Origin: a candidate division FCPU426 bacterium
GTDB lineage: Bacteria > Oederibacteriota > JAAXVQ01 > JAUVAV01
NCBI GenBank assembly: GCA_030591525.1
Contig: JAUVAV010000004.1
Span: forward strand, 3,307 to 67,306
Length of the DNA stretch: 64,000 nt
Reading direction: 5' to 3'
This document shows, one piece after another, positions 6,001-43,726 of this stretch. The position numbers were made by a program, and so were the translations under genes. The notes under the pieces were generated by a model, which was not told where the DNA came from, searched no databases, and saw only the letters and a list, made by a program, of their open reading frames with translations. Within the stretch, counting starts at the first letter, position 1. Each line of letters begins with the position of its first letter.

Positions 6001-9000
6001 TTAATCTTAAGGCCTGCAGCCTTAATTGCATTCCTGATACCAGTGTAAATACGGTTAAAACCCGTGGTATTACAAGACACGACTATGGCTGATTCCACAC
6101 CCTTTAAACTTTCGAAATCCGACGTATCTAAAGAAAAAGCCCGGTTACCAGCTACTTCCGGGCCTTCGCCGCCCTGCCAGAGCCTGGCTTCAATGACATT
6201 CTTCTCCGCATAGGGTTTATAGATTTCTTCATTATTAATCCAGCCGGTTCTTGTTTCCGGAGCGCCTTTACCGCCGGTAGAAGCATCCACGACAATAGCT
6301 TGCTGTCCATCTTCACGCAATTTATCCAACAGATCGATAATAGAGCCTTGATAGGGCAACCCTGCTGCTTGAGCCGCTTCAAGATTTTTTTCCAAACCAT
6401 TAGCTATATACAAAGGATAGCCCTTAACTATTGCATCATAAGTCAAAGGCTTGGCTCTTCCTTCTTCGTCCACACTACCAGTATTGACAGCACCGATGAT
6501 TTCAAATCCGCATTTCCGGTAAAGATCAGCCACTTTCTTGCCAATGGTGCCATATCCATTGATAATGACTCTTTTCCGGGGCTGGATCAGGGCTGAGTAT
6601 CCTCCCTCGACACGCGGGCTTTTCTTAAAGGTCAGTAATATTTCCTTGCCATCTATGTTATACGCCATCTGGAAAAATTCAGCTTTGCCCTGGTAAATTT
6701 TTTCGACTTGCATCCCATTCGTTAAATAATGAAGATATCTTATTATGCCTTTTTCGCCGCTTTCGCGAAATGCCGCAGCTCGATTTGGGTCACTTTTGTT
6801 GAATTCAAGAAACTTCTTGAATTCATCCATCTCGCCAATTTCCACTTCATAGCCAACGCCTTGTTTAGCTACCATGGTGCCTACTTCTTGCAGAACATCA
6901 GCATAAAAAGCTGCCCGGTTGGCTTTTCTGATGGTGATTTTCGGTTCAATAACTAATCTTGATGCTATTTGTTCGACGCTGAAAGGCACATCACCGGAAG
7001 TCACCTCTCGCGACCCTGTGTCGGCTCCTGTACCCGGCGTCATTACCATCCCAATTAGAGCTAGCAGCGCCATAATCGAAGTAAATTTGCTCATCCCAGA
7101 CGAGAAGAGGCTGCGATTCCATATAGTATTCGCGATTTGGCTGATTTGCGGAGATGCGATCACAATAGCTCCGGCAATAACCAATCCTCCAAATACCCAG
7201 ACATTAAGACCGGCAAAAGCAAAAAGGCCCGCGCCTACTGCTATGACCGCAGTGCCAACAAGATACGGCAGGGCCGGGCGAACGGTTTTTAGCGCTCTGG
7301 TTACTCCGGTGTCTAAGAATTTCTGGCCCCGGTTCAGCATTCCGGCCGGCCCATTCATCATCTCACTTAAACCCGATTGTACTCCGCCGAACGCCGATGT
7401 AATTGAGGGTGCTGCCATCATTGCTCTTCCGGCCATTATTGGCATGACCTGGGCCATGGTGGCCTTCAGCGCTACCTTGACCATGCCGCCCTGCACTACC
7501 CGGCCTTGCATCAATTGGGCTTCAATCCCAGCTAAACTCCGGTTATCTAAAATGGAGAATTCAAAACCATTCAAAACCCGCTGGTGCTTGGCTAAGGCTT
7601 TCAGGCTTATACCATGCCCTATCGGCCGAACGATTAAAGAAGCTTGCAGAGCCGGAAACGGCACTTTTACTGTTCGAGTTTCCACATCCATTCTCGCGTT
7701 GTCCCAATCCGGCTTGGCTTCCGGATGGTTAGCCATTGCTTCTGTTACAAACACGCTAAGTTCTGGAATATTGATTTTCCCCTCTTCTATGCCGACTTTA
7801 GTAGTGTCTTGGAAGAATAAGTGTGCCATCATTGTATTGAAAATCCCGGCATCATGCATAAACGAGGATTCTAATCCCATAATATTCTGGTTCTGCGCCA
7901 GAAGCTTTTCCAAAGGCGTACGCTTGTTTCTCAGCAGGGCAAAATAGGGATTTACTATGTCGTGATGACAAAGGCAGGGTTTCACGCATACATACGATAT
8001 GTTATGGCGTTCCAATTCCTGGAGCACTTCTTCCTTATGATAACCGCCGGTTACCATCATCGCGAGCTTGGTCTGCTGCTTATCCATGCAGGCCAGGACG
8101 TTCTCCACAAACGCCAGGCTACGTTCATCAGCCACGCGGTAGAAAGTTCTTACTTCTTCAAGATAACTGTCCAGCTTATAGACCTCGGCATCCAGCATGA
8201 ATAAACCTTCTTTATCATGCCGGCTGATAAATTCCAGAAAACTCCCTACTTTGAATCCTTCGGGATTTTTACGAAATTGTACTAAATCCTTGGGAGCGGC
8301 GGAAATATTGACCAGTTTTTCTATAATATCCAGACGATGCTGAATTATATCCATGATCTGCTGATCGTCCGTGGTATACAACCGGCTGCGCAGCTGTTGG
8401 TCCAACTGGTCCAACTCATTAAACAGATCGTCGGAATCCACGTTTTCCGGGAAAATGTTCTGCCGCCGCGATACATAGCGCGCTAAATTCGAATAGGGTT
8501 TCATGTCCAGCTTTTGCCGCACCCCGTAATCATACATGTTTACGCTGTATTTCAAGACCGAGATATCGCCCTCGCGGAAAGCCTGCTTCTTCTCATCGAT
8601 CTGAGCCAAGGCCTTATTATATATGTTGCCCTTCAACTCATCGAGGGTCTCACGCAGGTCAAAGATATATCCCTGGCTCTCGTTGTTGAGAAAACTCATC
8701 ACGTTTTTCCGGTTGTCATCATACAGGGCCTGGGTCTCAATACCCTCCAGACGAATGGGATGCTTTCCCGTGGCCGCGTACAGTTCGGCCCCTGTGATCT
8801 TTCCCTGTTTCATCAGATAGTGAGCTGTATCCTTTTTCACCTTTTCCAGGGGAAAGTCCGCGAGCTTGGAAACATTAATCGGTATTGACTCGCCTTCCAC
8901 GGTTACCAGGTTCAAGCCATGCTTTCCTGCCAGGTCATCTATCATGCCGGCAATGTTATTCTGCACCTCGTAATTACAGTGCAGGTCCTGGACGCAGACC

Positions 9001-9275: not shown

Positions 9276-9540
9276 TTTGGTTTTGCTCCTTTCAGCATTT
9301 GAACAAATTTTTTAATACATAAAATATTTTCAATTTTCGAAAGTATATCAGACAATTTGCGCAATGTCAAATTACGAAATAAAAAAAATATTACTATTTA
9401 TGCGTAAAATCCCTTGTGTTGCATTATGAAACGTATTATGCTGTTTTTATTTATTTTTTTCTGATGAGATTAGGTGAGGGTGCGATTTTAAGTCAAAAAG
9501 GGAGGGGAATACTTGAATTCTGGACTAAATGCTCAAGCTC
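9276..9540 (-). promoter_or_regulatory. Putative promoter/5' UTR of the giant gene.
   Basis: A 260-bp AT-rich intergenic stretch immediately upstream of the RBS AAAGGAG carries multiple TATAAT/TTGACA-like hexamers. No specific box was assigned. Confidence 0.3.
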
Positions 9541-10092: not shown

Positions 10093-11046
10093 CTAGTCTT
10101 TAAAAGGACGCCGGCGGGCGAAATCCGGTTTATAATGGCTTGGTCCGGCTGTTTCCTGGACCCAGCCGTGTTCCAGGCCCAAGCGCTCCATCTCTTCCAC
10201 TACTTCGCCGTACTCCTCCGGGCTTAGGTACCGCCCCAGGTCCGGATCACAGGCTACGGCGGGAATTGGCGAGTACTGCGACATCAAGGATATATGAACC
10301 CCGGGCGAGAGCTCTTCCGCGACGAACCTGAGAACCCGCTTGCTGTTCTCCACTTGCCCGGGCAGAACCAGGTGGCGGACAATCAGCCCGGACTCGATTA
10401 CGCCTGTTGGGTCGAGCTTCAAGCCGGGCCCTTTTTGACGGAACATCTCCTGCAAGGCCCGGGAAGCAACTTCCGGATAATCCGGCGCATCCGAGAGGCG
10501 GGCGGCCAGAGCCGTATCCAGGTATTTCAAATCCGGCAAGTATACCTGCACCCGGTCTTCCAGCGCAGCGATACGCTCCGCTTTATCATAGGCATTGGTA
10601 TTCATCACAAAAACCGGATTCCGGCCGCGCTCTTTCAGACCCTGCATAAGCATTTCCATTTGAGGGAGAACATGAGAAGGAGAAACAAACCCTACGCACT
10701 TTACGCCTGATTCCATTATCTTTTCGATTTGACGTATGGTTTGCTCCAGAGTGAGTTTCCGGCTGAGAACGGTTTCCCGGTTGCGGCTAATCTGGTAGTT
10801 CTGGCAATATACACACTGGAGGTTGCAGCGGCTGAAAAATATGTTACAGATCCCGCTCTTTCCGGTCAATACCGGCTCTTCGCCGCGGTGAAGGCAGATA
10901 GAGGCTATCTCAAACCCGGCCCCGGTCTGGCAATACCCGTAAGACCCGTGGAACCGGTCAACCCGGCATTCACGGGGACAGCAAACGCAGTTTGACAGAC
11001 ACGCCAGGTATTCAGCCGATGGTCCGGGAGAGCGTTCGCTAATCAT
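10093..11046 (-). CDS. Radical SAM protein of the PflA-like / AmmeMemoRadiSam type.
   Basis: The canonical CNLQCVYCQN (CxxxCxxC) is present, plus an N-terminal extra Cys cluster CLSNCVCCPRECRV...YCQT. Confidence 0.6.
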   Translation of the reverse strand: MISERSPGPSAEYLACLSNCVCCPRECRVDRFHGSYGYCQTGAGFEIASICLHRGEEPVLTGKSGICNIFFSRCNLQCVYCQNYQISRNRETVLSRKLTLEQTIRQIEKIMESGVKCVGFVSPSHVLPQMEMLMQGLKERGRNPVFVMNTNAYDKAERIAALEDRVQVYLPDLKYLDTALAARLSDAPDYPEVASRALQEMFRQKGPGLKLDPTGVIESGLIVRHLVLPGQVENSKRVLRFVAEELSPGVHISLMSQYSPIPAVACDPDLGRYLSPEEYGEVVEEMERLGLEHGWVQETAGPSHYKPDFARRRPFKD

Positions 11047-13466: not shown

Positions 13467-14339
13467 TTATTCAGTCAATATCTTCAAAATTTCATTATAT
13501 TTATCCGCCGTATTCCTCACCACATCCTCGGGCAGTTCCGGACCGGGCGGAATTTTATCCCATCCCGAAAGCATGAGCCAGTCCCTGACATACTGTTTAT
13601 CATATGCCGGCTGGCCTTGACCTGCCTGGTATGATTTTTTCGGCCAGAAGCGGGAGGAATCCGGGGTTAAAACTTCATCTATCAATATCAGCCGGTCTGA
13701 ATGCCGGCCGAATTCGAACTTGGTATCCGCAATAATTATGCCCCGGGAAAGAGCATACTCCGATGCTGCCTGATATATCCGCAAGCTCAGGTCGCGCACC
13801 TGCTCAGCTGTCTCGCGGCCCAACAATTCAATTGCCTCGGGGAACGTGATGTTCTCGTCATGCGCTCCCATCTCGGCCTTGGTGGAAGGCGTAAATATGG
13901 GTGTTGGCAATTTATCCGACTCTTTTAAGTCCGGTGGAAGTTCTTCCCCGCAGATCCAGCCCGTAGCCTGGTATTCCTTCCATCCGGATCCGGAAAGATA
14001 CCCGCGAACAATGGCTTCCACGGGCAAGGGATCGGCTTTAAGAACCCGCATGCTGCGTGGTTCCAGTTCAGCCAATACCTTGGGATCAGATATTAAATCA
14101 TTTAGGGCACGGGAAGATAGCTGGTTGGGAATGATATCTTTAAAGCGTTCAAACCAGAAGCTGGATAATTCAGTCAAAACCGCGCCTTTTCCCGGAATAA
14201 GCGTAGGCAGCACCACATCAAAAGCCGAGATCCGGTCCGAGGCTACCAGCAGAAGATCATCCCCTGCCTGGTAAATGTCTCTGACTTTTCCCTGCTTTAG
14301 CAGTTTGAGTCCGGGAATATCAAGCATTGGTGAGAGCAA
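13467..14339 (-). CDS. purC: Phosphoribosylaminoimidazole-succinocarboxamide (SAICAR) synthase.
   Basis: LKLLKQGKVRDIYQAGDDLLLVASDRISAFDVVLPTLIPGKGAVLTELSSFWFE is the classic PurC N-terminus, and the protein is 290 aa. Confidence 0.85.
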   Translation of the reverse strand: MLSPMLDIPGLKLLKQGKVRDIYQAGDDLLLVASDRISAFDVVLPTLIPGKGAVLTELSSFWFERFKDIIPNQLSSRALNDLISDPKVLAELEPRSMRVLKADPLPVEAIVRGYLSGSGWKEYQATGWICGEELPPDLKESDKLPTPIFTPSTKAEMGAHDENITFPEAIELLGRETAEQVRDLSLRIYQAASEYALSRGIIIADTKFEFGRHSDRLILIDEVLTPDSSRFWPKKSYQAGQGQPAYDKQYVRDWLMLSGWDKIPPGPELPEDVVRNTADKYNEILKILTE

Positions 14340-21221: not shown

Positions 21222-21365
21222 CATTAAATAAAAATCTCGAGTATTGTATGCTTCCCCAAACCGGAATGCAAGATTTTTCCTCGGAAAAAATTTGTCCATC
21301 CCCTCCGGATCGGATTAGGTTTTACGCCGGATATGCCGTAACTTATAAACAAGGGGAGGTATAAT

Positions 21366-23939
21366 GTGATTTTTGATTCTGAAGCATCCCAACTTTTTTT
21401 CGGGGCGGCCTTCCTGGTTCTTGCCTTGGTGTTTTTTTTACTCCTGCTGGGTCTGATTTTTTACGTCAAATCATTGCGGGAAAAATATCGGCGGCTTCTG
21501 CGCCTACCGGCGGAAAAGGAAGTACCTCCGGCCTTAAGCACCACGAAAACCATCCTGGATAAACTGCCTTTTGGCATCTTTATCAGCAACCGGGAGAGAA
21601 AAATTCTCCAGGTTAATGCCGCGGCTTTAAAAATGATAGGGGCTGGTTCAGAACAAGAAGTCCTAAACCAGCTTTGCCATGAGATATTTCGTTTAACTCC
21701 CCAAGATCCGTGTCCTATTCTGGAAGAAGGCCGGCCAATAAACTCCAGAGAATGTTTTCTAAAAGGAATTGATAATAGTGAAATCCCGATTTTAAAGAAT
21801 GTTACACCTATTACCCTGGAAGGCGAAGAAGTCCTGCTGGAAACCTTTGTTCCTATCGAAGAACTTTATAAGGTCCGCCAGGAGGCCGAAGAGGCCAATA
21901 AAAGCCAGGCCGAAGCAGTGCAATGTTCTAATAATCTGGCTGTACTGGCCGAGCAGGCTAATTTATCCAAGAGCAAGTTCCTGGCAAATATGAGCCATGA
22001 AATCCGCACCCCTATGAATGCAGTTATCGGCATGGTACAACTGGTCTTGGATACGCAACTCAGCTCAGAGCAGCAAAATCATCTCAACAAAGCGCTTAAC
22101 GCCGCCGGGTCTTTGCTCAATTCAATCAACGACCTTCTGTATCTTTCCAAAATCGAGTCCGGCCATCTGCCCCTGGAGGAAATCAATTTCGACCTGCGTA
22201 CTACCATGGAAAGCGCCTCTGAAATTGTAGCGGGTAAAGCCAGTGAAAAAAACCTGGAATTAGCCTGCCATATTGAGCCCCAGGTTCCCACATCATTGAC
22301 CGGCGATCCTGGCCGGTTGCGCCAGATCCTCTTGAATTTGCTCAGCAATGCCGTTAAATTTACTCATCAGGGCGAGGTTATACTTTCAGCCGGACTCTCT
22401 AATGAAACCCATTCGCATGCTGAGTTGGTTTTCACAGTTTCCGATACCGGCATCGGTATTCCCGAGGATGAACACAAAATGGTTTTTGAATATTTTACTC
22501 AAGCCGGTGCCTCAACCACCCGGCGCTACGGAGGAACCGGATTAGGACTCCCCCTCACCAAACACCTGACGGAACTAATGGGCGGCCGGATTTCACTGGA
22601 GAGCGGGTCCGGGCAGGGCAGTACTTTTAAAATCACACTTCCCTTCCTGCTCCCAAAAGAGCCTCCTCCCGTATTGTCTCAAGCCAAGGATTCCTTAGCC
22701 GGCATCCGGGTTTTGATTGTGGATGACACTCCCATTAACCGGCAAATTTTTCAGGAAATGCTTAAAAAGTGGGATATGCAGACTAAGACCGCGGCCGATG
22801 GGCCGGAAGCCTTGAAAATCCTGGCATCCGCTTACCACGAAGGAAAACCATATCAGCTTGTGCTCCTGGATAAATTCATGCCTGATATGGACGGTTTCCA
22901 TACAGCTGAAAAAATAAGAAAGGGAGTTTTTGCGGATAAAATGAAAATTCTCATGATTACTTCGGCCGGGACACGCGAAGACGGGGTGCTTTGCCGCAAA
23001 TTGGACATAGCCGGCTATTTAACCAAGCCGGTAAAACAAACGGAGCTTTATAGCGCCATCATTTCAGTGCTGTGCCAAAAGGAAATACCTTCCTCTATAA
23101 AAACTCCTCTGGTCACCCAGCATTCCTTGCAGGAGCGCAGACGCCGCCTGGATATCCTCCTGGTCGAAGATAACCCCATCAACCGCGAATTGATGCTGGC
23201 CTTGCTGGCCAAGCGGGGAGAGGCGGTTACCGAGGCTGAGGATGGAATCCAGGCTCTCAAGGTCTTGGAAAATCATGTTTATGATCTGATATTTATGGAT
23301 GTGCAAATGCCAAACATGGATGGACTTAAAGCCACCGAGGAAATCCGGAAACGTGAGCAGGTTACCGGAAAACACACGCCCATTATTGCCCTCACAGCCC
23401 ACGTGTCTATGCAAGACCGGCAAAAATGCCTGGCCGCCGGCATGAATGATTTTATTGCCAAGCCGATTAAGCTCCCGGAATTCCACAAACTGCTGGAGCA
23501 TTATTCCAGCCTCAATTTGTCGAATAAAAACCTCTCTCCTTATTCTTCCCCAGCCGCCCCGAACTCCGAACCAGCCTCTGATCTGCCGGTTTTAGATATG
23601 AAGTCTGTATTGGACCGGGTCGACGGGGACCGGGAATTGCTGCGTGAGCTCTTACAAGACTTTATCAATATCTCCCAACAGTATACTAGTGATATGGAAA
23701 GCGGGATCCAGAGGCAGGACTGGGATGCCGTACGCCAAATTTCCCATACCTTGAAAGGATCCTCAGCCAACTTATCCTGCGAGCGAATCCGTAAACTGGC
23801 GACAAACCTGGAACAGATGGCGAGAACACACCCGGGGGAGGATAACCTCCGGCAGGAAATAAAGCAAATAAAGCGCGAACTGGAAAACCTCCGGAATTAC
23901 GTGGCATTAAACAAGGAAATATTCCATACCGCTTCGTAG
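21366..23939 (+). CDS. Hybrid sensor histidine kinase with TM, PAS, HisKA, HATPase, two REC domains and a C-terminal Hpt domain.
   Basis: It has the H-box MSHEIRTPMNAVIGM and the G-boxes DTGIGI and GGTGLGL. Two receiver domains carry VLIVDDTPINRQ...LLDKFMPDMDG and ILLVEDNPINRE...FMDVQMPNMDG. The Hpt domain shows ISHTLKGSSANL. Confidence 0.85.
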   Translation: MIFDSEASQLFFGAAFLVLALVFFLLLLGLIFYVKSLREKYRRLLRLPAEKEVPPALSTTKTILDKLPFGIFISNRERKILQVNAAALKMIGAGSEQEVLNQLCHEIFRLTPQDPCPILEEGRPINSRECFLKGIDNSEIPILKNVTPITLEGEEVLLETFVPIEELYKVRQEAEEANKSQAEAVQCSNNLAVLAEQANLSKSKFLANMSHEIRTPMNAVIGMVQLVLDTQLSSEQQNHLNKALNAAGSLLNSINDLLYLSKIESGHLPLEEINFDLRTTMESASEIVAGKASEKNLELACHIEPQVPTSLTGDPGRLRQILLNLLSNAVKFTHQGEVILSAGLSNETHSHAELVFTVSDTGIGIPEDEHKMVFEYFTQAGASTTRRYGGTGLGLPLTKHLTELMGGRISLESGSGQGSTFKITLPFLLPKEPPPVLSQAKDSLAGIRVLIVDDTPINRQIFQEMLKKWDMQTKTAADGPEALKILASAYHEGKPYQLVLLDKFMPDMDGFHTAEKIRKGVFADKMKILMITSAGTREDGVLCRKLDIAGYLTKPVKQTELYSAIISVLCQKEIPSSIKTPLVTQHSLQERRRRLDILLVEDNPINRELMLALLAKRGEAVTEAEDGIQALKVLENHVYDLIFMDVQMPNMDGLKATEEIRKREQVTGKHTPIIALTAHVSMQDRQKCLAAGMNDFIAKPIKLPEFHKLLEHYSSLNLSNKNLSPYSSPAAPNSEPASDLPVLDMKSVLDRVDGDRELLRELLQDFINISQQYTSDMESGIQRQDWDAVRQISHTLKGSSANLSCERIRKLATNLEQMARTHPGEDNLRQEIKQIKRELENLRNYVALNKEIFHTAS

Positions 23940-23966
23940 GGACCGCGCCATGTCCCGCCCCAGGAG

Positions 23967-24035
23967 ATAGCCAATTCTATATATGTTGCATCATAAGCAG
24001 ATAAATGATGTTCTCTGGTCAATAACAAAGCAGTG
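23967..24035. repeat. 69-bp direct repeat (left copy) bracketing the AbiE cassette. It is a duplicate of the vapC 3' coding end.
   Basis: atagccaattctatatatgttgcatcataagcagataaatgatgttctctggtcaataacaaagcagtg matches 25711-25780 with 4 mismatches. The right copy lies inside vapC, encoding ...LLLAREHHLSAYDATYIELAM. Confidence 0.7.
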
Positions 24036-24077
24036 AATTTTAGGAGACGTTGTGGGCTGACCCAGGTTTAACGGACA

Positions 24078-24890
24078 CTACGTCGCGTCGAGCTTCTTCA
24101 ATGCACTGGTTAGATACTCTTTACTTATTAGACTTTCGTCAGCTGGATGCTCTAAAAAAGGTTGAATGTCCTTTATAAGTTGCTCGTGGTTGATAGTATC
24201 CAACTTTTTAAGTAAAATAGCGGGCCACTCTTTTGGCTGCCATTCGATTTTTTCCTGGTTTTGTGATAAGGCATTTTTTAATTGAATCAAATTAGGTGCA
24301 ATTTTTGGCTTTTGCGCTAAATACCAAATAAGATCATACCAGTCCCGGCCTTTTAAATACTTTCGCGTACACAAAGCATGGATTTTACCAGCCATCAGAG
24401 AAGACAGATCATGATGCATTACTGCAAAAAGCAGATGTTTTTGAACAAGTTTTCGCTCCAAAACTGCGCCTGGGGGAGGCTGACTATCGATTTCAATTTT
24501 AATTGACAACTTTTGGTCCCTCAAAGGTGATAAATGTAGTTCTTTTAAAACATCCCGGATTTTAATCCAGCCTACATGGACAACGCCGGTATTATTCCAA
24601 GTCAGGTCAATATTATAATTTTCATAGATGAAATCTTTTTTTAATTTATGCATCCATTTTTCGAAATGGTAATTTGACTTATTTTCCAGCGAAAAATCAA
24701 GATCCTCTGAAAACCTGGGCAAGTTATATAAGAACCGTAAAGCTGTTCCCCCCACAAATGAAATATTTTGAAAAGCTTTACTTTCGTGCAAAGAACGGAG
24801 AATAAAAGCTTGCAGGTATTCTCTTACATAATTTAGTTTTTGATTAATGTCTTTAATATCCTTAACGGCTAGTAATAGCGATTCTTTCAT
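24078..24890 (-). CDS. abiEii: AbiEii/AbiGii-family nucleotidyltransferase toxin (type IV TA / abortive infection).
   Basis: SFVGGTALRFLYNLPRFSEDLDFSL is the signature N-terminus of DUF1814/AbiEii. Confidence 0.75.
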   Translation of the reverse strand: MKESLLLAVKDIKDINQKLNYVREYLQAFILRSLHESKAFQNISFVGGTALRFLYNLPRFSEDLDFSLENKSNYHFEKWMHKLKKDFIYENYNIDLTWNNTGVVHVGWIKIRDVLKELHLSPLRDQKLSIKIEIDSQPPPGAVLERKLVQKHLLFAVMHHDLSSLMAGKIHALCTRKYLKGRDWYDLIWYLAQKPKIAPNLIQLKNALSQNQEKIEWQPKEWPAILLKKLDTINHEQLIKDIQPFLEHPADESLISKEYLTSALKKLDAT

Positions 24891-25528
24891 TAACTTGCGT
24901 ACTCCTGATTATTTTTTTGACCATAACTAAGCCAATGTTTAAAAATACTCTCCAATCTTGGAGATTTGTACTGATCCAGATAATTTTTCAGCCGTTCTGT
25001 TTTAATGGTGTTCAACTGCTGAAAACGCAAGCTCTCCAAACGGCCTAATGACCATTCGCCTGATGTCAGATAAAAGTAATCCAACAATGCTTTTTCAGGA
25101 GTTGCCAGCCAAACTTCCTGATCCTGTATGGTTTGTCTTGAATAGCCAAAAAATAAATCCGCCTTAATATGATGGTAATAAAATCTGCCAAATGCGTTAT
25201 TAAATTGACGTGTTGTTCTGGTAGTTACTGAAGAATAAATATGGACTTGCTCAGGAATCAGACCATAAAAATTCAAACACCACAATCCACTTAAATATGA
25301 CGGCCCATAAAGCTGATTAGCTAAAACCAAGGGATTAAGTTCGGTTTGCCGATATGGCGCAGCAAAGGTATATAGCTCCCGCTTGAGTGCTACCAGTTTC
25401 CCGGACTTGACCAGGCGATAGAGCTGGGTCTTAATGCTTTGTGGCTTTTCATCAAATAATTGTAAAACGGTTGCCATGTCAAACATAGGCAAGATATTTA
25501 GTTTTTCAATCAAGTCGCTGTATTTCAT
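24890..25528 (-). CDS. abiEi: AbiEi-family antitoxin/transcriptional regulator. The start was chosen at MKYSDLIEKLN, and the ORF track extends it to 25588.
   Basis: It is immediately upstream of abiEii and overlaps it by one nucleotide. It has the length and order of AbiEi, with a winged-helix-like N-terminus. Confidence 0.55.
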   Translation of the reverse strand: MKYSDLIEKLNILPMFDMATVLQLFDEKPQSIKTQLYRLVKSGKLVALKRELYTFAAPYRQTELNPLVLANQLYGPSYLSGLWCLNFYGLIPEQVHIYSSVTTRTTRQFNNAFGRFYYHHIKADLFFGYSRQTIQDQEVWLATPEKALLDYFYLTSGEWSLGRLESLRFQQLNTIKTERLKNYLDQYKSPRLESIFKHWLSYGQKNNQEYAS

Positions 25529-25629
25529 ATACACTATTATACATAATTGTCTATTAATGTAAACGTTAATCGTGATGCATACTTCCACAAATGCCCGGGG
25601 TCAAAGTTAGCTTGTAATTCCGCCCCTGT

Positions 25630-26043
25630 TCACTCCCATAGCTTTACTCCAACTTTTTTAGCTGCCTTCCGTAAGGTCAGGTCCAACGTGGCGAAAGGTA
25701 TGCCTTCCCGCATAGCCAATTCTATATATGTTGCATCATAAGCAGATAAATGATGCTCTCTGGCCAATAACAAAGTAGTGGAAAAGGCCTTATATGTCGT
25801 ATCTTGATCCACTACAATTGGCAATGAATTTAACAGACTCAAAAATCGTGCAGAATCCGCCTCTTTAAGGCGCCGGCGTCTTTCCGCTACTAAAAGCACA
25901 TTTGAAACTTCCAATGGCCATAAACTCGGCACTATGGCCTCGGAACGAGATAGTGCTTCCAGTATTTTTTCGGTATCCAGCGTAACTTCATCCTCAAAAC
26001 ACCAACTCATAGTTACCGAACAGTCCAGCACAAACCGCTTCAA
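25630..26043 (-). CDS. vapC: PIN-domain ribonuclease toxin VapC.
   Basis: It contains VLDCSVTMSWCFEDE...AYDATYIELAMREGIPFATLD with the PIN acidic residues. It overlaps the upstream antitoxin gene by 4 nt. Confidence 0.8.
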   Translation of the reverse strand: MKRFVLDCSVTMSWCFEDEVTLDTEKILEALSRSEAIVPSLWPLEVSNVLLVAERRRRLKEADSARFLSLLNSLPIVVDQDTTYKAFSTTLLLAREHHLSAYDATYIELAMREGIPFATLDLTLRKAAKKVGVKLWE

Positions 26044-26282
26044 AATCTTCTACCTTCCCTGATCATGGATTTCAGATTCGCTTTCCCAAGCTTTTTGCCT
26101 TTACTAAACTCCTTTAGACTTTGGATAGTCAATTTCGTATCCGTCCTGCCTAAAGCCGGGGCCGGGATGATCTGCGCTACCGGCATCCCATGCTTAGTAA
26201 TGATATAATTCTCACCCCGCGCCACTTTCTCTAATATCTCAGGCAGATGAGTCTTAGCTTCATAAGCGCCTACCGTATGCAT
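26040..26282 (-). CDS. Type II antitoxin (Phd/YefM-like) partner of VapC.
   Basis: It is 80 aa, contains ...AKTHLPEILEKVARGENYIITKHGMPVAQIIP, and sits translationally coupled upstream of vapC. Confidence 0.65.
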   Translation of the reverse strand: MHTVGAYEAKTHLPEILEKVARGENYIITKHGMPVAQIIPAPALGRTDTKLTIQSLKEFSKGKKLGKANLKSMIREGRRF

Positions 26283-26624
26283 TATCCCCTCCTATTTAAA
26301 CTAGTCTTATACTAGTCTATATTATATTTGCAATATTATCAACCTGTTTTTATGTAATCCGGGTAATCCGGGACGTGAGTGAGCGCAATATAAAAAAAAC
26401 GAATTACCCGGGGAGCCTACCGGACTTTGTTGTTGACTTATGATATAATGACAGCAGTTTCCCCCTTTTCCCTGGACAAAACCATCCAGGACTGGCAAAA
26501 AGGGGGATCGAGGGGGATTTTATAAGTGATAAATCCCACCTAGGATGTGTATTCTTCCCTGGCTTGGCATATTGCATTAGACAGGTTTCTTTGCCTTTTC
26601 ATTCATTTTTTTTAATTTTTTCTA

Positions 26625-26663
26625 TATTGCGCTCACTTACTGACTAACCAACGTCCCGGATTC
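26625..26663. repeat. Left ~38-bp inverted repeat of the 26667-27188 cassette.
   Basis: Its reverse complement, gaatccgggacgttggttagtcagtaagtgagcgcaat, is about 92% identical to 27258-27295. A third partial copy lies at 26344-26381. Outer inverted repeats of the GGGGGAtcGAGGGGGATTTT type lie at 26500-26525 and 27345-27370. Confidence 0.6.
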
Positions 26664-26666
26664 ATA

Positions 26667-27188
26667 CTATATCTTTTCGCCACCTCTCAACATATACGCT
26701 GATTCATTTCTTTGCTTAGCAGTCCAACTACTTAATAAATATCGTTGGGCTGTTGAAAAATGCTCAGCCCAAAATGCCAACAATATTTCCATATTCCTTT
26801 TTTCGCTAGCCTTCTCTCTTAAAGATTCCCAAAAATCTTTCCCATCATCATATTTTTTCATTGCTTGACGGACTTTATTGCCTTCTTCTTTAATTAGCTT
26901 GTCCAATTCCTTAATTCTTTTAATTATAGTTTCTTGTTCTATATATGGCATGCAGCTAGCAATTACGGATATTTTAAATATCTTATAGTCCTTATTCTCT
27001 TCAAGCATTTCATTTAAAGTCTGTATAAATGGACTATTGCAGTTCCTCATTCTTTCTGAAACCAAACATATTTCGTCATATAAAATACTTAACTGAATTT
27101 CTAGAGGCGGACTTTTTTTCTTAGATAAAATGATATATGAAATAAAACTTATGATAGCAACAGCAATAATAATGTCGTAGATTCCCAT
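26667..27188 (-). CDS. Hypothetical membrane-anchored coiled-coil protein (cargo of an inverted-repeat-flanked cassette).
   Basis: An N-terminal TM helix IIIAVAIISFISYIIL is followed by a charged helical region. The local sequence is AT-rich and bounded by ~38-bp inverted repeats at 26625-26663 and 27248-27308. Confidence 0.45.
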   Translation of the reverse strand: MGIYDIIIAVAIISFISYIILSKKKSPPLEIQLSILYDEICLVSERMRNCNSPFIQTLNEMLEENKDYKIFKISVIASCMPYIEQETIIKRIKELDKLIKEEGNKVRQAMKKYDDGKDFWESLREKASEKRNMEILLAFWAEHFSTAQRYLLSSWTAKQRNESAYMLRGGEKI

Positions 27189-27247
27189 AAATAGACCCTT
27201 ATTACATTAGCATTAAATGTACTTCAAACTGCTCCTTCGGCGGAACG

Positions 27248-27308
27248 GTAATCCGGTAATCCGGGATGTTGGTTAGTTAGTAAGTGAGCGCAATGAATTA
27301 CCTGGGGC
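27248..27308. repeat. Right inverted repeat of the cassette (ggtaatccggtaatccgggatgttggttagttagtaagtgagcgcaat).
   Basis: See the left copy at 26625-26663. Confidence 0.6.
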
Positions 27309-27453
27309 AAGCCCCAGGAAATCTAACCTGATTTATTATTTGTAAAATCCCCCTTCATCCCCCTTTTTGAAAAGGGGGAACTTGAAAAAAATGCCTTTTA
27401 TTGTTAAGTCCAACAGGCTCCCAGGCATAAACATTCCAGCCAATCAGGTATCC

Positions 27454-27534
27454 GTAGGGGCCGGCTTCCATGCCGGCCCATGGTTTTAAATTCACGCGCA
27501 TGGGCGGACATGGAAGTCCGCCCGTGCGAAAACA
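27454..27534. repeat. Reverse-orientation copy of the two-hairpin unit, lying 3' of pfp.
   Basis: ccgtaggggccggcttccatgccggccca...gggcggacatggaagtccgccc is about 85% identical to the reverse complement of the 53437-53507 unit. Confidence 0.55.
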
Positions 27535-27552
27535 TTAATATCCATCCATCAT

Positions 27553-29379
27553 TTAAATAATCCGCGTTTCCTCTCCCAGGTCAAAATCCAACCCGGCACA
27601 ACCCTGGTTTAAAGCCACAGTTATGGGAAGCTGTCCGGCCACCGGGCCCCAAAGCTGGCGGGGACCGGGCGAGGAGAAGCAATCCTCTCCGGCCCAGCGT
27701 TCCCGGACCGAGAGAAAATATTTAAAAGCAGGCGAATCGGTCTCGACCAGGGCTTTTTCAATCACCATCTCATCCCGGCCGTGCCGCCGTTCTACATGTA
27801 TCAACCCGGTCAGGGGCAGCGCCAAGGCCTCGCCGCCACAATCCAGGGCGCTTATAGCCGCCATGTAACCGGTCTTGCCGGCCAGGGCCAGAGACCCGGC
27901 CGTTAGCCCTAAATTAAAAGTATAAGCCGCGTCAAACCGGCTGGGCGCTCCACAACGTCCTTCATACCCGAAGAAATGACTATTAGTGGCAAACCGGGAC
28001 TTTACAAACCTTTCGACTTCTTCCGGCGCTAAATCTATCTGCTCTTCCGCCTGACCGATAAAGGGCGCGGGATTGACTTTCATTTCGTGCAGACGTATAT
28101 TTACCATCTCAATTAATAATTTTTCGGTCGGAATCTGGGAAACCTGCAGATTACCGTGGGAATCGCGGTCCAGGAGAAGCATGTTCTCAAACTCATGCGG
28201 CAAGGAAGCCATCAGTTTGACTGACTCGGCCGATATTTTTCCATAGATGAAATCCTTTTTCTCCGCCATGGTATTAAGTTCGCTTAAAAGCCGGGCCGAA
28301 TCAGCCATGACCTCATTAAGTTCCTTTATCAATATTTTCATCTCCGGGATAAACTCGATCAACCCTTCGGGAATTAAAATCACGCCATAATTTATACCCC
28401 GGCCCGCCCGCCGGGCCACAGACCGGCAGATAATATCCACGATCTGGTGCAAAGAGAGTTTTTTTTCCTCGAGTTCTTCCGAGATAAAGGCGATGGCCGG
28501 CTTGGTCTGTAAGGCCACTTCCAGGGCCACATGGCTCGCGCTGCGTCCCATGAGCTTGATAAAATGCCAGTATTTCCGGGAAGAAGGTGTGTCCTGGAGG
28601 ATGTTGCCGACCAACTCGGAATATATTTTCGTGGCCGTATCAAAGCCGAAGGAAATCGGCAGCAACGCTCCTTCCTGGAGATCGCCGTCAATGGTTTTGG
28701 GAACCCCGAGAACCTGCACGCCCCGCCCGTCGGCATGCACATTCTCAAAAAGATACTCGGCCAATACGGCGGCATTGGTATTGGAATCATCGCCGCCGAT
28801 AATCACCAGGGCATCCACGCGCTGGTCACGGCAGACCGCTTTAACCAGCTTGAACTGCCCATGATTCTTGATCTTGGTACGGTCCGTACCCAGAAAATCA
28901 AACCCGCCGGTATTCAGGAGCCGGTTTAAATCTTCTTCCTTGATTTCAAATAAACTGCCTCCCAGCAGACCTTTTGGCCCGTGTTTCACGCCCAGTAAGA
29001 CATTATCCGGTCCCAGGGCTTTTTTTAAACCCGCTAAAACATTATGCCCCCCGGCCGCCGGACCGCCGGAAAACAGGACTGCCACGCGTTTCCCGGATAC
29101 CAGGGGACGGTTCGCAATATCCGCCTTTAAAACGCGGTCCCCGGTCTGGGGATATAATTTCGGAAAAGCTTCGGCCACCCGGTTTAAATCACGGTTTTCC
29201 GCCAGCTTCTCTTCCGACGGTTTGAATCCGGCCGGCGCGATTTTCTTGTTTTCAATAAAAGCTTTTTTCACGGGCAGAGGAAGATTCCTCACCTCTCTCT
29301 CAAAAAGCGAGCGGTTTTTCTCGGTTTCTTCCCATACCCGGATCAAATCCGGATTGGCGGTTTTAGTGCTGGATGACAT
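27553..29379 (-). CDS. pfp: Pyrophosphate-dependent phosphofructokinase (long type, 608 aa).
   Basis: It carries the motifs GGPAAGGHNV, IIGGDDSNTNAA (Asp at the ATP/PPi-discriminating position), GVPKTIDGDL and LMGR. Confidence 0.8.
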   Translation of the reverse strand: MSSSTKTANPDLIRVWEETEKNRSLFEREVRNLPLPVKKAFIENKKIAPAGFKPSEEKLAENRDLNRVAEAFPKLYPQTGDRVLKADIANRPLVSGKRVAVLFSGGPAAGGHNVLAGLKKALGPDNVLLGVKHGPKGLLGGSLFEIKEEDLNRLLNTGGFDFLGTDRTKIKNHGQFKLVKAVCRDQRVDALVIIGGDDSNTNAAVLAEYLFENVHADGRGVQVLGVPKTIDGDLQEGALLPISFGFDTATKIYSELVGNILQDTPSSRKYWHFIKLMGRSASHVALEVALQTKPAIAFISEELEEKKLSLHQIVDIICRSVARRAGRGINYGVILIPEGLIEFIPEMKILIKELNEVMADSARLLSELNTMAEKKDFIYGKISAESVKLMASLPHEFENMLLLDRDSHGNLQVSQIPTEKLLIEMVNIRLHEMKVNPAPFIGQAEEQIDLAPEEVERFVKSRFATNSHFFGYEGRCGAPSRFDAAYTFNLGLTAGSLALAGKTGYMAAISALDCGGEALALPLTGLIHVERRHGRDEMVIEKALVETDSPAFKYFLSVRERWAGEDCFSSPGPRQLWGPVAGQLPITVALNQGCAGLDFDLGEETRII

Positions 29380-38831: not shown

Positions 38832-41051
38832 TCAGCGGGGCAGGGTGATGGTGATTTCCACTCTCCGATTCCTGGCCCGGGTATGGGCTCTCCTCCCGCT
38901 TTCCAGGGGCCGTTTCTTGCCATAACCTTCCATCCTGATAAGGGATGATTGCAAGCCTTCTTCCTCCACTAAATAGCGCATGACCATTTTCGCCCTTTTT
39001 AAAGACAACTCCAGGTTGTATTCCTTAGAGCCGACATCATCGGTATGTCCTTCAATAAACACCTTTACTTTTTCCGGCGGATACATGTTTACCAGGTCCG
39101 CGGTTTTCCGCAGTTTTTCGAACATGGCCGGTTTTAGTTCCGCCTTATCAAAATCAAAGAGAATCTGTTCTATCTTCAATTTTATCGCCTCCGGAGTTTC
39201 CGATAAAATTCTGACATCCGTAGCCGGTAAAACCGAGGCCTGCTGCCATACATTGCCCAAGGAGTCCTGCAGCCGAAGAACGTAATTATACTTCCGGTTG
39301 GTAGGCACCAAACGTCCTTTATCATCGCGGGAATCCCAAACCAGGGACCGGAATAGCCGGCCGGAACCATCAAATGTTCGAATGACTTCCCCGCTCTTGG
39401 CATCCATGATATTCAAGGCCCAACCTTGAATTTTAACTTCGTCCGGCAGTTTTAATTTAAAGGGAATCTTTTCCGCCAGGGGCAAACCCGAATCCGTCCG
39501 GGCCTTGGTTCCCGTGTCGACCACCACCAGAGGAGCAACGCTTTGAACCTCATTTCCCTTTTTATCCTTGACATTCAGGACAAAATGGAATCCTTCCTTG
39601 ATAGCTACGGGATATTGCTGCTCATTCCTGCCATCCCAAACCAGATCCTTAGGAATATTTCCCACGCCCGCATAATTTCTAAGCGTGCGGCCGTCATTAC
39701 TGACAATCGTAAGCGACCACTCCCTTACCTGCTCAAAAGACTTGGGAATAAAGCTTACTTTCCCGGCAAAAATATCCCGCGGCAGCGCTTTTAAACGGGG
39801 AAGTTTGGTAATGGAAACCGGCAGGATTTCCCCGCCTGACCGGACCGCATATCCCAGGCGGTCTGAAATTCGGCAATTGTAAAAATAGTAATCTTCCAGC
39901 TCCGCCCGGGCTCCCTGGTTATTGAGCCCGTCCCAGACAATGGTCAAAGGTAATTTATCATGTCCCTCAAAACGCCGGACTTGGCGGTGGGCGCGATCGG
40001 AAATCACCAGTTCCCAACGACTTATTCCGGCCGCGGCCTGTACCGAGGAAACAAAGCGCACCTCGCGCCCCACCTCCCCGTCTGGATAAACAAACTGTTT
40101 GGTAAGTATTCTCACTTCCAGCACGGGCCGGGCCAGACGGCGCTGGCTTCCAAAATCATAACTGCCGGAAAAGCGATGGGCCCAGCCCATAGTTCCCAGC
40201 GGCGAGAGAGCATAATCAATATGTATTCTCTGCCAGCGCAGGCCGGTTCCCAGGTTAAGCCAGTCTCCGGCATCAGCGCTCTTGATCCCGGCCCGGAGCG
40301 CCAGCAAATTCCATAACCAGCCCTCTGCTCCCACGGCCCATAACCAATCTCCCTGAAGAGGCACTTCAATCTCAGCCCCCAGGGAAATCCTATGGGGATC
40401 ATCCGGCCATAACCGGTAGGCCGCGCCGATTCCAAAATCCAAAGGCAGGGAATCCCGGGATTCCTGGAAAGCCGTTAAAAAGCCGGCATTGTCCACGGTA
40501 GCGGCCAGGAGCAGCTGATCATTAAACAGAAAATATTTTGCCCCCACATCCAGGGCCAGGCCCCAAGAGCGGGACGAGCTTAAATTAGACATTAGGTATT
40601 TAAGACGGCCGCCGACTGCCAAATGCTTTAAAGGTTTAAACGCATAACTGCCGGCTGCCAGCAGATCCCCGGCTTGTTCGGTCTTAATGCCGGGATCATC
40701 AGTGCTGTTAAAAGGAGGCACATTTAAATAAGCCGCTGTAAATCCCAGAGCGCCGGATTTACCCAGTGGCTGTACCGCCCATACGGCATCAAAGGTAATG
40801 TCGTCCCACCAGGACAGGTGGCTAAGTCCGAACTGGGGATTAAGCAAGCCTAAAATACCGGCGGGATTATAAAAAGCGGACTCGGCATCCTCACCCAGGG
40901 CGGAATAGCACCCTGCCAGAGCAGCTGAACGGGCGCTGGGTATGAGATGTAAAAACTCGGCACCGGTCGTTCCTTCCCCGCACCAGACCGGACCAGCCTC
41001 CAGAAAAAGGCCCAAGACCGCCAGTTTTAACCATCCTGAAGGTCTTCTCAC
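38832..41051 (-). CDS. Large OmpA-family outer-membrane protein: PorV/PorQ-like N-terminal barrel, FlgD-Ig-like repeats and a C-terminal OmpA peptidoglycan-binding domain.
   Basis: It has a signal peptide and [36 protein letters not shown]. The repeats read [21 protein letters not shown] and [23 protein letters not shown]. The C-terminus carries [12 protein letters not shown]...NRRVEITI. Confidence 0.65.
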
Positions 41052-43726
41052 TTGACCACTAACACCTTTCGGATTTCACGCCTGCCATGGCTTTCCAGCA
41101 CGACAAAATAAACTCCTGAAGCCACATCCTGCCCTTCCTGGTTGCGGCCATCCCATTCCAGCCGGAAATATCCGCCAATAAAAGCTCTGGGCCGCGCCTG
41201 CCAGACCTGCCTCCCGGCCAAAGTAAAGATTGTTATCTTGAACTCTTCTTCTTTTAAAACCCCTACCCTGATTTCCAGGCTCTCCCGGTCCGGCGTAAAA
41301 CGGTTTTTATCCAGATAGAAAATCGCGCAGGGAGTAAAAGTAGGGGTGGGCGGCAACGTAGGGCTGATAGTAGGCGTCAGGGTAATGGTAGGACTAATGG
41401 TGCAAGTGGGAGTTATACTAACGGTCGGAGAAATGGTATAGGTCTGAGTAATAGTTGATGTTCTGCTGATGGTGCCGGTAACGGTAAGCGTAGGAGTTGA
41501 AGTATAGGTCAAAGTGCGGCTCGGAGTAGGGCTGGGTGTTGGTGTGGGCGTCGGGCTGGGGGTATTGCTTGGTGTAGAGGTTGGACTGTAGGGTGGCGTA
41601 TTGGTAGACGTAGGCGTATGCGTCAACGTAAATGTCGGGGTTGGGCTGGGCGTAACGCTCGGCGTAGGAGTTGACGTAGATGTTGGGCTTGGACTGGGCG
41701 TAACGCTCGGCGTAGGAGTCGACGTAGATGTTGGGCTTGGGCTGGGCGTAACGGTCGACGTAAACGTCGACGTAGATGTTGAGGTTGAGCTCGGCGTAAC
41801 GGTCGACGTAAACGTCGACGTAGATGTTAAGGTTGAACTCGGCGTAACGGTCGACGTAAACGTCGGCGTAGATGTTGGGGTTGGGCTGGGCGTAACGCTC
41901 GGCGTAGGGGTCCACGTAGATGTTGGGCTTGGGCTCGGCGTAACGGTAGATGTAGGCGTAGACGTATTGCTAGGGGTCGGGCTGGGGGTATTGCTAGGGG
42001 TTGGGCTGTAGGCCAGCGTATTGGTAGACGTAGGCGCAAACGTATTGCTGGGTGTCGGGCTCGGGGTATTGCTGGGCGTTGGGCTCGGGGTTGGGCTGGG
42101 TGTCGGGCTCGGGGTATTGCTGGGCGTTGGGCTCGGGGTTGGGCTGGGTGTCGGGCTCGGGGTATTGCTGGGCGTTGGGCTCGGGGTAAACGTAACTGTC
42201 GCAGTACCACCCGCTTCTAACCTGATAATCGCCTCTTCGCAGCGCATCAATCCTGAAACATTCGAGGCGCCCGTGCTTTCCGCAAACCAGATTTTGATGG
42301 TTTTTTCCTCATCATCGCTCGTAAGAAGTGCCTGAACTGTCAAGGTATTGGCGCGATTCGTGTCCCCTTTATTTCTCCAACGGCCGGCATCCGCGGAAAT
42401 CCATGTATCAAGCGCCATATTGGCAGAAGTCATTGTCACGGGAAAGTAAAAACTAACCAGATCAGAGCCTTTGTCCACGCACACAAACCGGGCATTGGGA
42501 ACGCACCACTTTAAGTACACCGTGGTATCACTAGTAGTTTCCCCACCGTCATCAATCCAGAAGGAGGTCATGGGAGGATCGTCCAATGTGTAGTAACAGC
42601 AATCTTGTGTGGCCGCGGTATAAATACGCTGACGTTGAGCATCCAACGCAATGGACCATATCGTGTCCGCATCGTCCGGTAAGCTCATCCAAGTCGGACC
42701 GCTTAGGATATCACCATCATTCGAATCCATACCAACCCACCCCAGGTCACCCGAACCGCCACTGGATCTTCCCATATACATCCGGTTTTGGGTGGCGTAA
42801 AGACTCGTGGCGTCGAGATTCAAACAAAGAATCGGAGACCCCATATCATCAGATGCGACTCCTGGGCCTAGCGGTTTGCCCCCCGAACCCAAGGTGAAAG
42901 TATAAATATTATTCTTTCCTGACAGGCAGGCATGTAAACGATTGCGCACGCTATCCAGGGCCAGGGACAGCACCGGATTAGAGCCGACTGCTGCTGGATA
43001 AGAAGTTCCGTCCAAGGTCTCGGGTATGCCAGCGGCATTCAGGTCATAGACTCTTATTTGTCCATCTCCGCAGCCCATATAAAGTTTGTTTCTCGCAGCA
43101 TCCAGAGCCAAGGAATAAACAGTTGCACCGGTAAAAAAAACAGGTAAAGCAGAAGCAGGATCCGCATTGATCTTTACTACTCCCAGCCCATCAGAATTGT
43201 GATTAAGCGCTACATAGAGACACCCGCGTTGAGTATCCAAAGCCAGAGCCTTGGCACCGGAGGTGAAAAAATCACAGGGAACGTTACCCACAACATCGCC
43301 AATGTTATCCAGGGTTAAGATATATAATTCATTGGTTCCGGCATGATTTGCCATATACAAGCGTTGGAGTTGGGTATCCAAAGCCAAACTGCGCGTATTG
43401 TCACCATAATTATAGGAAAGAGGCAGTACACTTGTATCTACATTGCCCTGGTCATTTAAAGAATAAACATAAAGATTGTCGCCGCTATTAGTATCCACGC
43501 CCAAATACAGCCGGTTGAGATTGGGAGCCACAGCAACAGCCTTACTGGATGAAATATCTGTTTCGGTATAACTTGTTGAGGAAACCGGGTCTGCAGCCAG
43601 GTGGGAAAAAGCAGGAAATAAAACCAAATAAAAGAAAAGCGATAAAACCAAGATCCCTGGCCATCGCGGAGACGAGCTGCGGAGATAATGGGAATTATGC
43701 AGCATTTTCCATCCTAATTCCAGCAA
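41048..43726 (-). CDS. Secreted surface protein with YVTN/LVIVD-type beta-propeller repeats, a ~250-aa Pro/Thr/Ser-rich low-complexity linker and a C-terminal FlgD-Ig / T9SS-CTD-like domain.
   Basis: The repeats include [37 protein letters not shown] and [17 protein letters not shown]. The PT(S) tract reads [18 protein letters not shown]... The C-terminus [37 protein letters not shown] resembles Por_Secre_tail/FlgD-Ig. Confidence 0.6.
41400..42210. repeat. Intragenic degenerate tandem repeats (~24-48 bp units) encoding the PT(S)-rich linker of the 41048-43726 protein.
   Basis: Units such as ggcgtaggagttgacgtagatgttgggcttgggctgggcgtaacgctc recur. This explains the multiple overlapping ORF-track hits in all frames. 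Confidence 0.7.

Follow-up and report, generated by a model that had tools for sequence, protein, structure and literature searches.

Why does a single low-G+C gene lie between nested inverted repeats (IRs), beside toxin–antitoxin (TA) and abortive-infection (Abi) genes, and do the repeats mark a dedicated mobile cassette? The question is raised by a stretch of 64,000 nucleotides (nt) from a candidate division FCPU426 bacterium (assembly GCA_030591525.1, contig JAUVAV010000004.1, positions 3,307 to 67,306), referred to here as the window, and by one open reading frame (ORF) in it, the 173-codon ORF173. An earlier, sequence-only reading had described the gene as a cassette bounded by two layers of inverted repeats, perhaps of integron type. 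Our analysis favours, at about even confidence, a composite-transposon-like slot formed from the debris of two lineage-specific repeat families rather than a purpose-built cassette. One family is the inner repeat, which we infer to be a transposon end; the other is a dispersed miniature inverted-repeat transposable element (MITE) carrying runs of G.

Repeat arms and their cargo in sister species

The inner IR pairs 26626-26662 with 27258-27294 over 37 nt at 95% complementarity, with 0.00 such matches expected in dinucleotide shuffles, and a third inner copy at 26365-26389 has the orientation of the right-hand copy and a 12-nt internal deletion. The motif GTGAGCGCAAT occurs three times (0.03 expected from shuffles); TAATCCGGG stands twice in tandem at 26355-26372, and TAATCCGG/TAATCCGGG is found at 27249-27265. 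The outer IR (26496-26535 and 27330-27369) spans 40 nt with 88% complementarity, for which the shuffles expect 0.01. Within the 64-kb window, inner and outer repeats are confined to these sites, with no further copies. The ORF (on the minus strand), both IRs, the tandem and the third copy all lie essentially where the sequence-only reading had placed them, and by the shuffles the repeats are not chance matches. The features of the locus, with the assignments argued below, are the following.

26355..26408, plus strand: copy A of the inner repeat, with the TAATCCGGG tandem (26355-26372), the core 26365-26389 carrying the 12-nt deletion, an A-rich tail and GAATTACC (26401-26408); read as the distal (right-end type) terminus of a decayed element 1, its outward terminus towards vapB.
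26410..26535, plus strand: half MITE inside element 1, with its GGA end at 26410-26432, the CCCCCTTTT hairpin region at 26458-26489 and the left outer-IR arm at 26496-26535.
26532..26604, minus strand: putative stump of a Y1 (PF01797-type) transposase gene, ATGAAAAGGCAAAG..GGTGGGATTTATCAC (M-K-R-Q-R...G-G-I-Y-H after a frameshift), stop-interrupted and fused to the MITE.
26612..26662, minus strand: copy B, core 26626-26662 plus ATAGAAAAAATTAA, its outward terminus 4 nt past the ORF173 stop codon; read as the transposase-proximal (left-end type) terminus of element 1.
26667..27188, minus strand: ORF173, a low-G+C orphan-family gene of 173 amino acids (aa) with an ATG start, within the 595 nt (26663-27257) that separate the outward termini of B and C.
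27249..27302, plus strand: copy C, with TAATCCGG and TAATCCGGG, core 27258-27294 and GAATTACC; read as the right-end type terminus of a decayed element 2.
27303..27422, minus strand: internally deleted MITE copy, with the hairpin CCTGGGGCAAGCCCCAGG, the right outer-IR arm (27330-27369), the CCCCCTTTTTGAAAAGGGGG hairpin (27359-27378) and the GGA end (27402-27422).
27444..27523, no strand: two GC-rich hairpins (GGGCCGGCTTCCATGCCGGCCC, GGGCGGACATGGAAGTCCGCCC) resembling repetitive extragenic palindromes (REPs), the pfp terminator region; sequence past the block common to the sister genomes, marking the edge of the variable segment.

Relatives of the locus were chosen through the protein of pfp, which encodes an inorganic pyrophosphate (PPi)-type phosphofructokinase (27553-29379), at 90% identity or more and on other contigs; their loci are labelled L001, L003, L018, L019 and L020. 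Genes common to the window and these relatives are ~90-91% identical in DNA. Downstream of pfp, the sequence differs in every relative examined. In L003 the same pfp is followed by a G-run arm and an inner repeat; next comes a gap of 903 nt with an unrelated gene of 156 aa, closed by a second, inverted inner repeat and more G-run sequences. A search for the IR frame with different cargo, suggested by the sequence-only reading, thus gave a positive result: the same two ends enclose another gene in a sister species. Comparison of the two cargo proteins revealed no similarity, and the cargo orientation is the same in both genomes. In L001, pfp is followed by one solo copy of the inner repeat, prfC, an intact Y1_Tnp gene and enolase; L018 and L020 lack the repeat and carry a GC-rich gene of 240 aa; L019, which differs again in content, lacks it too. 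Homology between the window and L001 ends at 21318, upstream of enolase, and picks up at 27502 in the pfp terminator hairpin, which defines 21319-27501 as the variable segment; its contents are the sensor kinase, AbiE, VapBC and the ORF173 cassette.

The inner, or junction, repeat has the consensus AATCCGGGACGTTGGTTAGTCAGTAAGTGAGCGCAAT, mostly followed by ATAGAAAAAATTAA, with the core AATCCGGGAYGTTGGTTAGTYAGTAAGTGARCGCAAT; the unit measures 37-53 nt and is non-palindromic. In nine copies from three related genomes, the boundary at AATCCGGG is base-exact and the DNA beyond it is unrelated in all of them. The opposite side usually reads ATAGAAAAAATTAA (or ATAGAAAAT-GAATTACC) and then passes into three different continuations. 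Folded as single-stranded DNA, the core and site B (the repeat at copy B) reach 0 to -0.4 kcal/mol, worse than most shuffles, with no hairpin and no dyad symmetry. Along the locus the orientation of the copies alternates: C (+), B (-), A (+).

Over 52 nt, site B matches L003 12910-12961 at 100% identity, against 86% for the orthologous arm adjoining the repeat (block 27257-27421, compared with L003 12008-11835) and ~90.5% for the genes; it is 98% identical to L001 7719-7773. Zero differences in 52 nt have a P of ~0.006 under neutral divergence, which points to constraint on the repeat or to its recent spread.

A coding origin of the repeat was considered and rejected: it contains one open frame (..CAHLLTNQRPG..), but frame and context are not kept across copies. 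Target specificity in the manner of the IS200/IS605 insertion sequences was likewise discarded, the bases before the terminus being variable (ATG, AGG, GAG, GGG, GGT, TGT, AAT), and an att site derived from a tRNA was ruled out by an empty tRNA/tmRNA search.

The inner repeat was found in one genus-level lineage only, with at least four loci. A scan that covered one genome per species matched only the metagenome-assembled genome (MAG) holding L003. Its five copies lie on three contigs: the pfp locus; L014, with a solo copy 10 nt past the stop codon of an ABC-F-like gene; and L015, where two direct copies 351 nt from each other flank a frameshifted fragment of an ORF. In L015 an open reading frame is truncated by the AATCCGGG terminus, which fits insertion. 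Searches of plasmid and phage collections (blastn) and of IMG/VR returned no match to the repeat, and the JGI metagenomes gave a single 21-nt partial match, at chance level.

Both direct copies of L015 (6877-7262; sister MAG CBDUZI01) are followed by the same 31-nt extension. The fragment that they bracket begins MLNQSFSADNFRRILDLENRRGVYLE..., which may resemble the N-terminus of defence-type reverse transcriptases.

The idea of two dedicated layers around a cassette did not withstand this comparison. Inner and outer repeats are joined into one composite arm per side (site, linker and G-run repeat), the left arm being ~45 nt longer in the alignment, and there is a third, outermost IR layer, GGGGAGCCTACCGGACTT at 26410-26432 with its inverse at 27402-27422. 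The outer repeat, GGGGGAT..GGGGGATTTT, is half of a dispersed, palindromic MITE of ~190 nt. This element combines GGGAGCCTGTCGGACTT ends (the third layer) with a hairpin, CCCCCTTTT..AAAGGGGG, and a pair of inverted G-run arms; the GGGGGATnnAGGGGGATTTT arms represent its halves. Intact ~190-nt copies are found at unrelated loci (L014 918-1107, L001 ~14150-14270, L003 15262-15389) and more fragments between other genes, and the CCCCCTTTT hairpin region at 26458-26489 is 94% identical to L003 6718-6766. The outer layer is ordinary dispersed MITE or REP-like DNA.

Decayed transposon ends or a recombination site

Copies A and B are inverted with respect to each other, and the stump lies between them. 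Its start, ATGAAAAGGCAAAG, falls 21-23 nt past the GCGCAAT side of the repeat in both the window and L014, and the 132-nt block that unites stump and site B (26532-26663) shares 92% identity with L014 745-873. The window stump (26520-26611) is also 81% identical to L003 13122-13209, where the same sequence opens a 66-aa ORF, MKRQRKLSKAIRQDGEPIPGGIYHIIIWGIERRKLF, and is separated from the repeat by a ~150-nt insertion of the G-run MITE with short IRs of its own (CTCAACTTTTGCA / TGCAAAAGTTGA). The L003 stump aligns from residue 1, N-terminus to N-terminus, with the intact Y1 transposase of L001, MARQRRLNLPGAIYHVITRGINRMPIF (BLASTP E 8e-7). From these alignments, a Y1 transposase remnant would be a reasonable but not secure identification of the stump.

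The intact L001 gene, which has no counterpart in the window, encodes a 337-aa Y1_Tnp (PF01797) protein with a faint DnaA_C-like tail. Its element (L001 9413-10576) sits at the exact edge of the conserved region upstream of enolase. Perfect 24-nt plain inverted repeats, GGGGACGGTGTCAACTTTGTAAAC, bracket the gene at 9413-9436 and 10553-10576. These ends differ from the hairpins of IS200/IS605, and the lineage thus does contain an element whose Y1 gene is framed by plain inverted repeats.

Mechanistically, the inner repeat would be the long terminal inverted repeat of an insertion-sequence-like element that once encoded a Y1 transposase of the IS200 type or of the REP-associated tyrosine transposase (RAYT) type. 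The AATCCGGG boundary would be the outer terminus of this element, and the transposase gene would have begun 21-23 nt in from the other side. Copies A and B would represent both ends of one dead copy, which may retain ~25 codons of the gene and half of an intruding G-run MITE. Copy C, with its deleted MITE, would be the corresponding end of another dead copy, oriented like the first, because the GAATTACC continuation is common to C, A and L003a. B and C would then read as inverted repeats because one is the left end and the other the right end of tandem copies.

ORF173 would belong to neither element and would occupy the gap left between their outward ends, like the cargo of a composite transposon, and would be an acquired passenger of a rare family. 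Inter-genome homology stops exactly at the element termini, so the gap DNA appears to be replaceable as a unit. The swap could take place by homologous recombination through the flanking copies, with incoming DNA that bears the same ends, or by a transposase supplied in trans; exchange of the gap as a unit would explain the unrelated gene in the same frame of the sister species. An unstructured, non-palindromic repeat also suits a transposon end bound by protein rather than a hairpin site. The inner layer, proposed earlier as a dedicated cassette boundary, is therefore best read as the terminal repeat of a decayed Y1 element, with the gene caught between two copies. Both element families and the protein family are undescribed; known kinds of element, namely decayed insertion-sequence ends and a MITE, account best for the anatomy.

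Several points weigh against this reading. Inspection of the outer edges of the 37-nt repeat, the 53-nt repeat and the GGA ends, in the window and in L003, found no direct repeats or target-site duplications, and the lack of a visible duplication at any copy makes all forms of transposition less likely. The link to a transposase is drawn from a stump of ~25-66 codons, and no intact copy of this element was found. The 66-aa L003 stump alone obtains no Pfam call, and a word-based search of the protein collection for full-length relatives returned the stump itself only. Hairpin ends, and no long terminal inverted repeats, are characteristic of classical IS200/IS605 Y1 elements, so the proposed element would be atypical. 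Base-exact cargo boundaries, on both sides and in two species, fit a dedicated site-specific exchange equally well. The distance from the pfp stop codon to the repeat-plus-MITE arm is ~130 nt in the window versus ~7 nt in L003, for which reason shared ancestry of the frame is likely, not proven. The comparative sample, finally, is small, with three related genomes carrying the repeat.

The exact boundaries are also what would be left by a dedicated module-exchange system like the dif modules of Acinetobacter, in which the repeat would be the site of a site-specific recombinase encoded elsewhere and the genes between inverse sites would be swapped among replicons by cointegrate formation and resolution, or inverted in place. 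Sites C, B and A alternate in orientation, the cargo is a single unrelated gene with base-exact junctions on both sides in two species, a third genome (L001) has a solo site at the same spot, the site is conserved above the neutral level, and TA modules adjoin; for dif modules, moreover, replacement of single modules between inverse sites is documented (PMC13141974). However, the repeat has neither dyad symmetry nor an 11-6-11 layout, and 26300-27450 contains no match to a XerD arm (up to 1 mismatch) or to a dif-like site (up to 6 mismatches). There is no recombinase gene in the variable segment and none is apparent in the ORF list of the window, in which most ORFs were not family-scanned. The L015 pair is directly oriented, alternation of three sites has a 1-in-4 chance of arising at random, and the stump at a fixed distance from the site points to a transposon end. 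We regard such a system as unlikely. An undescribed, Xer-independent form of chromosomal module exchange, with an asymmetric site of 37-53 nt, possibly driven by a Y1/HUH enzyme with long plain terminal repeats and with ORF173 as a defence-related payload, seems quite unlikely to us; if real, it would exchange accessory or defence genes one at a time within a fixed frame, leaving base-exact junctions, in an uncultured lineage.

The repeats could, on the contrary, have had no part in movement. The arms would then be passive debris at a fragile hot spot downstream of pfp, produced by inverted duplication or by chance accumulation of MITE and REP-like sequences, and the genes between them would have come through unrelated illegitimate events. 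This would agree with a spacer that is different in each related genome examined, with a lineage that has at least four intergenic repeat families and with left and right arms that are colinear composites; but illegitimate capture would not place four junctions exactly at the terminus in two species, and the repeat is conserved beyond neutral DNA. We consider this explanation rather improbable. Phase-variable inversion, by which a recombinase from elsewhere would flip the 595-nt segment and toggle ORF173 relative to an outside promoter, appears very unlikely. A 37-nt, 95% complementary pair is indeed placed tightly around one gene, a consensus scan of the 69 nt between site C and the ORF173 start codon found no sigma-70-like promoter, and short-read assemblies of related samples break within the repeats, as any dispersed repeat would nevertheless be expected to make them do. 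No invertase lies nearby, the repeat is non-palindromic, unlike hix- or fim-type sites, it also occurs solo and in direct pairs at other loci, and the assemblies of both carrier genomes have the cargo in one and the same orientation. In other assemblies of the same strain, which were sought for an inverted or empty state, the AbiEii contigs end before the cassette. An integron-type cassette, or an attC cluster deprived of its integrase, whose folded single-strand sites are recombined by IntI, is scarcely credible here. A series of promoterless-looking single genes and TA modules is reminiscent of sedentary integron arrays, and GTTGGTT in the repeat is loosely like the GTTRRRY core, with which it is nonetheless incompatible. 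The repeat stays unfolded (0 to -0.4 kcal/mol, no better than shuffles) and lacks the attC hairpin, the copies flanking ORF173 are inverted and not direct, and no integrase or attI is apparent within ~10 kb or in the window ORF list (eight ORFs Pfam-scanned, the others judged by translation); within that distance on both sides, the ORFs can be recognised as other kinds of gene. The defining features tested contradict the integron reading, and the integron-like gene cassette suggested from the sequence falls with it.

If the composite-transposon-like slot is the correct explanation, decayed transposon ends and MITEs would create a reusable chromosomal position beside TA and Abi genes that holds different orphan genes in sister species, one route by which a defence islet may diversify. 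Long inverted repeats that form no hairpin are unusual for HUH-Y1 elements, and a Y1-type transposase lineage framed by them would merit specialist attention. The locus opens no long-standing question, and the comparative sample is too small for claiming a new mobility mechanism.

ORF173 and its surroundings

The sequence-only reading was right in treating ORF173 as a real, foreign and uncharacterised gene beside TA and Abi modules. Its G+C content is ~29-35%, versus ~50-55% in the flanking genes. The neighbours on one side are Phd/VapC (Pfam E 5e-10 and 3e-10), AbiEi/AbiEii (PADLOC E 3e-52 and 1e-70) and a hybrid sensor kinase; pfp lies on the opposite side. The protein has no significant match in Pfam, NCBIfam or PHROGs. 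A PADLOC match to PglZ (E 4e-4) was set aside, as it covers a generic helical stretch.

A word-based search for relatives of ORF173 returned only the query itself, exhaustive phmmer found 8 and a profile search 12. The resulting alignment of 13 sequences has eight invariant positions (L33, S44, C50, W120, F139, H143, A147 and Q148) and a YMYKGPE-like C-terminus. The protein is predicted to consist of an N-terminal hydrophobic helix and a conserved, all-helical domain of ~150 aa. The AlphaFold2 model built on the 13-sequence alignment is a compact bundle of eight helices, with a mean predicted local distance difference test score (pLDDT) of 89.7 and a predicted template modelling score (pTM) of 0.79. 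Foldseek searches of PDB and BFVD with this model gave a best E of 0.78, and a PDB profile search a best E of 0.17. Of the two structural features claimed earlier, the N-terminal transmembrane (TM) helix is plausible, corresponding to residues 3-24 of the model, and the coiled coil finds no specific support in an eight-helix bundle. A hydrophobic or TM segment at the N-terminus is present in 4 of the 13 family members and absent from the other 9.

Homologs of ORF173 occur in varied contexts. One adjoins IS21, together with two conserved unknown genes; another, in a Paceibacterota-type genome, is set in a housekeeping region with a small GIY-YIG gene on one side and an unknown gene of 152 aa on the other; a third is found in a phage- or plasmid-like stretch with SSB; and a fourth stands among HicB, a BglII-type restriction–modification (R-M) pair and MNT-HepT. 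No IR frames were found around the homologs in other genomes, and the frame therefore belongs to the locus, not to the gene family. Neither ORF173 nor VapB is on record elsewhere. We infer that the members of this rare family are accessory genes of mobile or defence islets. They may act as toxins or in Abi, but this lacks support, the sole hint being the homolog in the HicB/BglII R-M/MNT-HepT cluster. Rare as it is, a 13-member family with a confident, new-looking helical fold that is found twice in TA or R-M neighbourhoods has an interest of its own.

At L009 5631-6936 and the equivalent loci L010-L012, a tight three-gene insert is conserved in four samples. It comprises the small GIY-YIG gene, the ORF173 homolog and the 152-aa gene (4-nt gap), and its flanks are a fabD-like gene and an AdoMet-decarboxylase gene.

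Upstream of vapB (phd), at 26283-26343, direct and inverted AGACTAGT repeats surround a promoter-like TTGCAA-16-TATAAG and probably form the operator for the antitoxin, with the end of junction-repeat copy A ~60 nt upstream of it. The GC-rich hairpins next to pfp belong to a REP-like family of paired hairpins (GGGCGGACTTCCATGTCCGCCC and GGGCCGGCTTCCATGCCGGCCC), found in the window at 27444-27523, 53334-53502 and 61632-61653. They serve as terminator-like structures in several intergenic spacers and are present in sister genomes too.

Across the whole window no Rfam family reached its gathering score; the sole sub-threshold match in 23500-28500 was an S. pyogenes sRNA model (22 bits versus a gathering score of 208), outside the repeats. 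At the start of the window, the minus strand of 3-9311 carries a stop-free frame of more than 3100 codons that runs off the window. It is presumably a giant protein gene, and no Rfam family or other ORF explains the stretch. A tandem array at 41615-42188, with periods of 12, 24, 48 and 78 nt and GTTGGGGTTGGGCTGGGCGTAAC-like units, lies within an 892-aa ORF (41048-43726) and would encode a repetitive protein segment.

Comparison with known systems

The locus shares with integron cassettes, and with clusters of attC sites lacking integrases (CALINs), small and mostly promoterless single-gene units accompanied by TA modules in a variable array. It differs from them in its sites: attC sites are folded imperfect palindromes in direct orientation next to an IntI/attI platform, whereas the sites around ORF173 neither fold nor lie in direct orientation, and no integrase or attI is apparent from the window ORF list. 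A formal likeness also exists with the dif modules of Acinetobacter plasmids, where single modules, often TA systems or lone ORFs, replace one another between inverse alternating sites (PMC13141974). Here too, inverse alternating sites surround a discrete gene and the same frame contains a different module in L003, in a small sample. However, pdif sites are 28 bp long, with an 11-bp XerC arm, a 6-bp spacer and an 11-bp XerD arm (TTATGTTAAAT-like), a layout that the junction repeat neither has nor resembles, and the window case is chromosomal with no recombinase apparent.

In RAYT/REP systems, the REPs are hairpin-forming palindromes of ~20-40 nt in tens to hundreds of copies, and classical REPs are not known to bracket passengers. 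The present locus resembles them in having a putative remnant of a Y1-family gene between inverted short repeats that are also dispersed intergenically, lineage-specific and conserved, with a parallel in L001. The junction repeat, in contrast, is 37-53 nt long, does not fold and was found in a handful of copies (five in the L003 MAG).

Composite transposons of the Tn5/Tn10 type form the remaining comparison, together with passenger genes flanked by insertion sequences or MITEs. The latter include mobile insertion cassettes (MICs; MIC231 and the qnrS2 MIC) and MITE-bounded integron mobilisation units (PMC5444012, PMC4337579). Unlike composite transposons and MICs, the locus displays no target-site duplication, and no intact transposase is known for its ends; the stump is of the Y1 (HUH) and not the DDE type, and both flanks are reduced to ends and debris. 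Its frame seemingly keeps a single chromosomal position in two species, instead of the independent insertions to be expected. What it has in common with them is a gene unrelated to transposition, bracketed by inverted, dispersed and sharp-ended copies of a putative terminal repeat (the 37-nt IR, 95% complementary), with different passengers between the same ends and with non-autonomous flanks that would need a transposase in trans.

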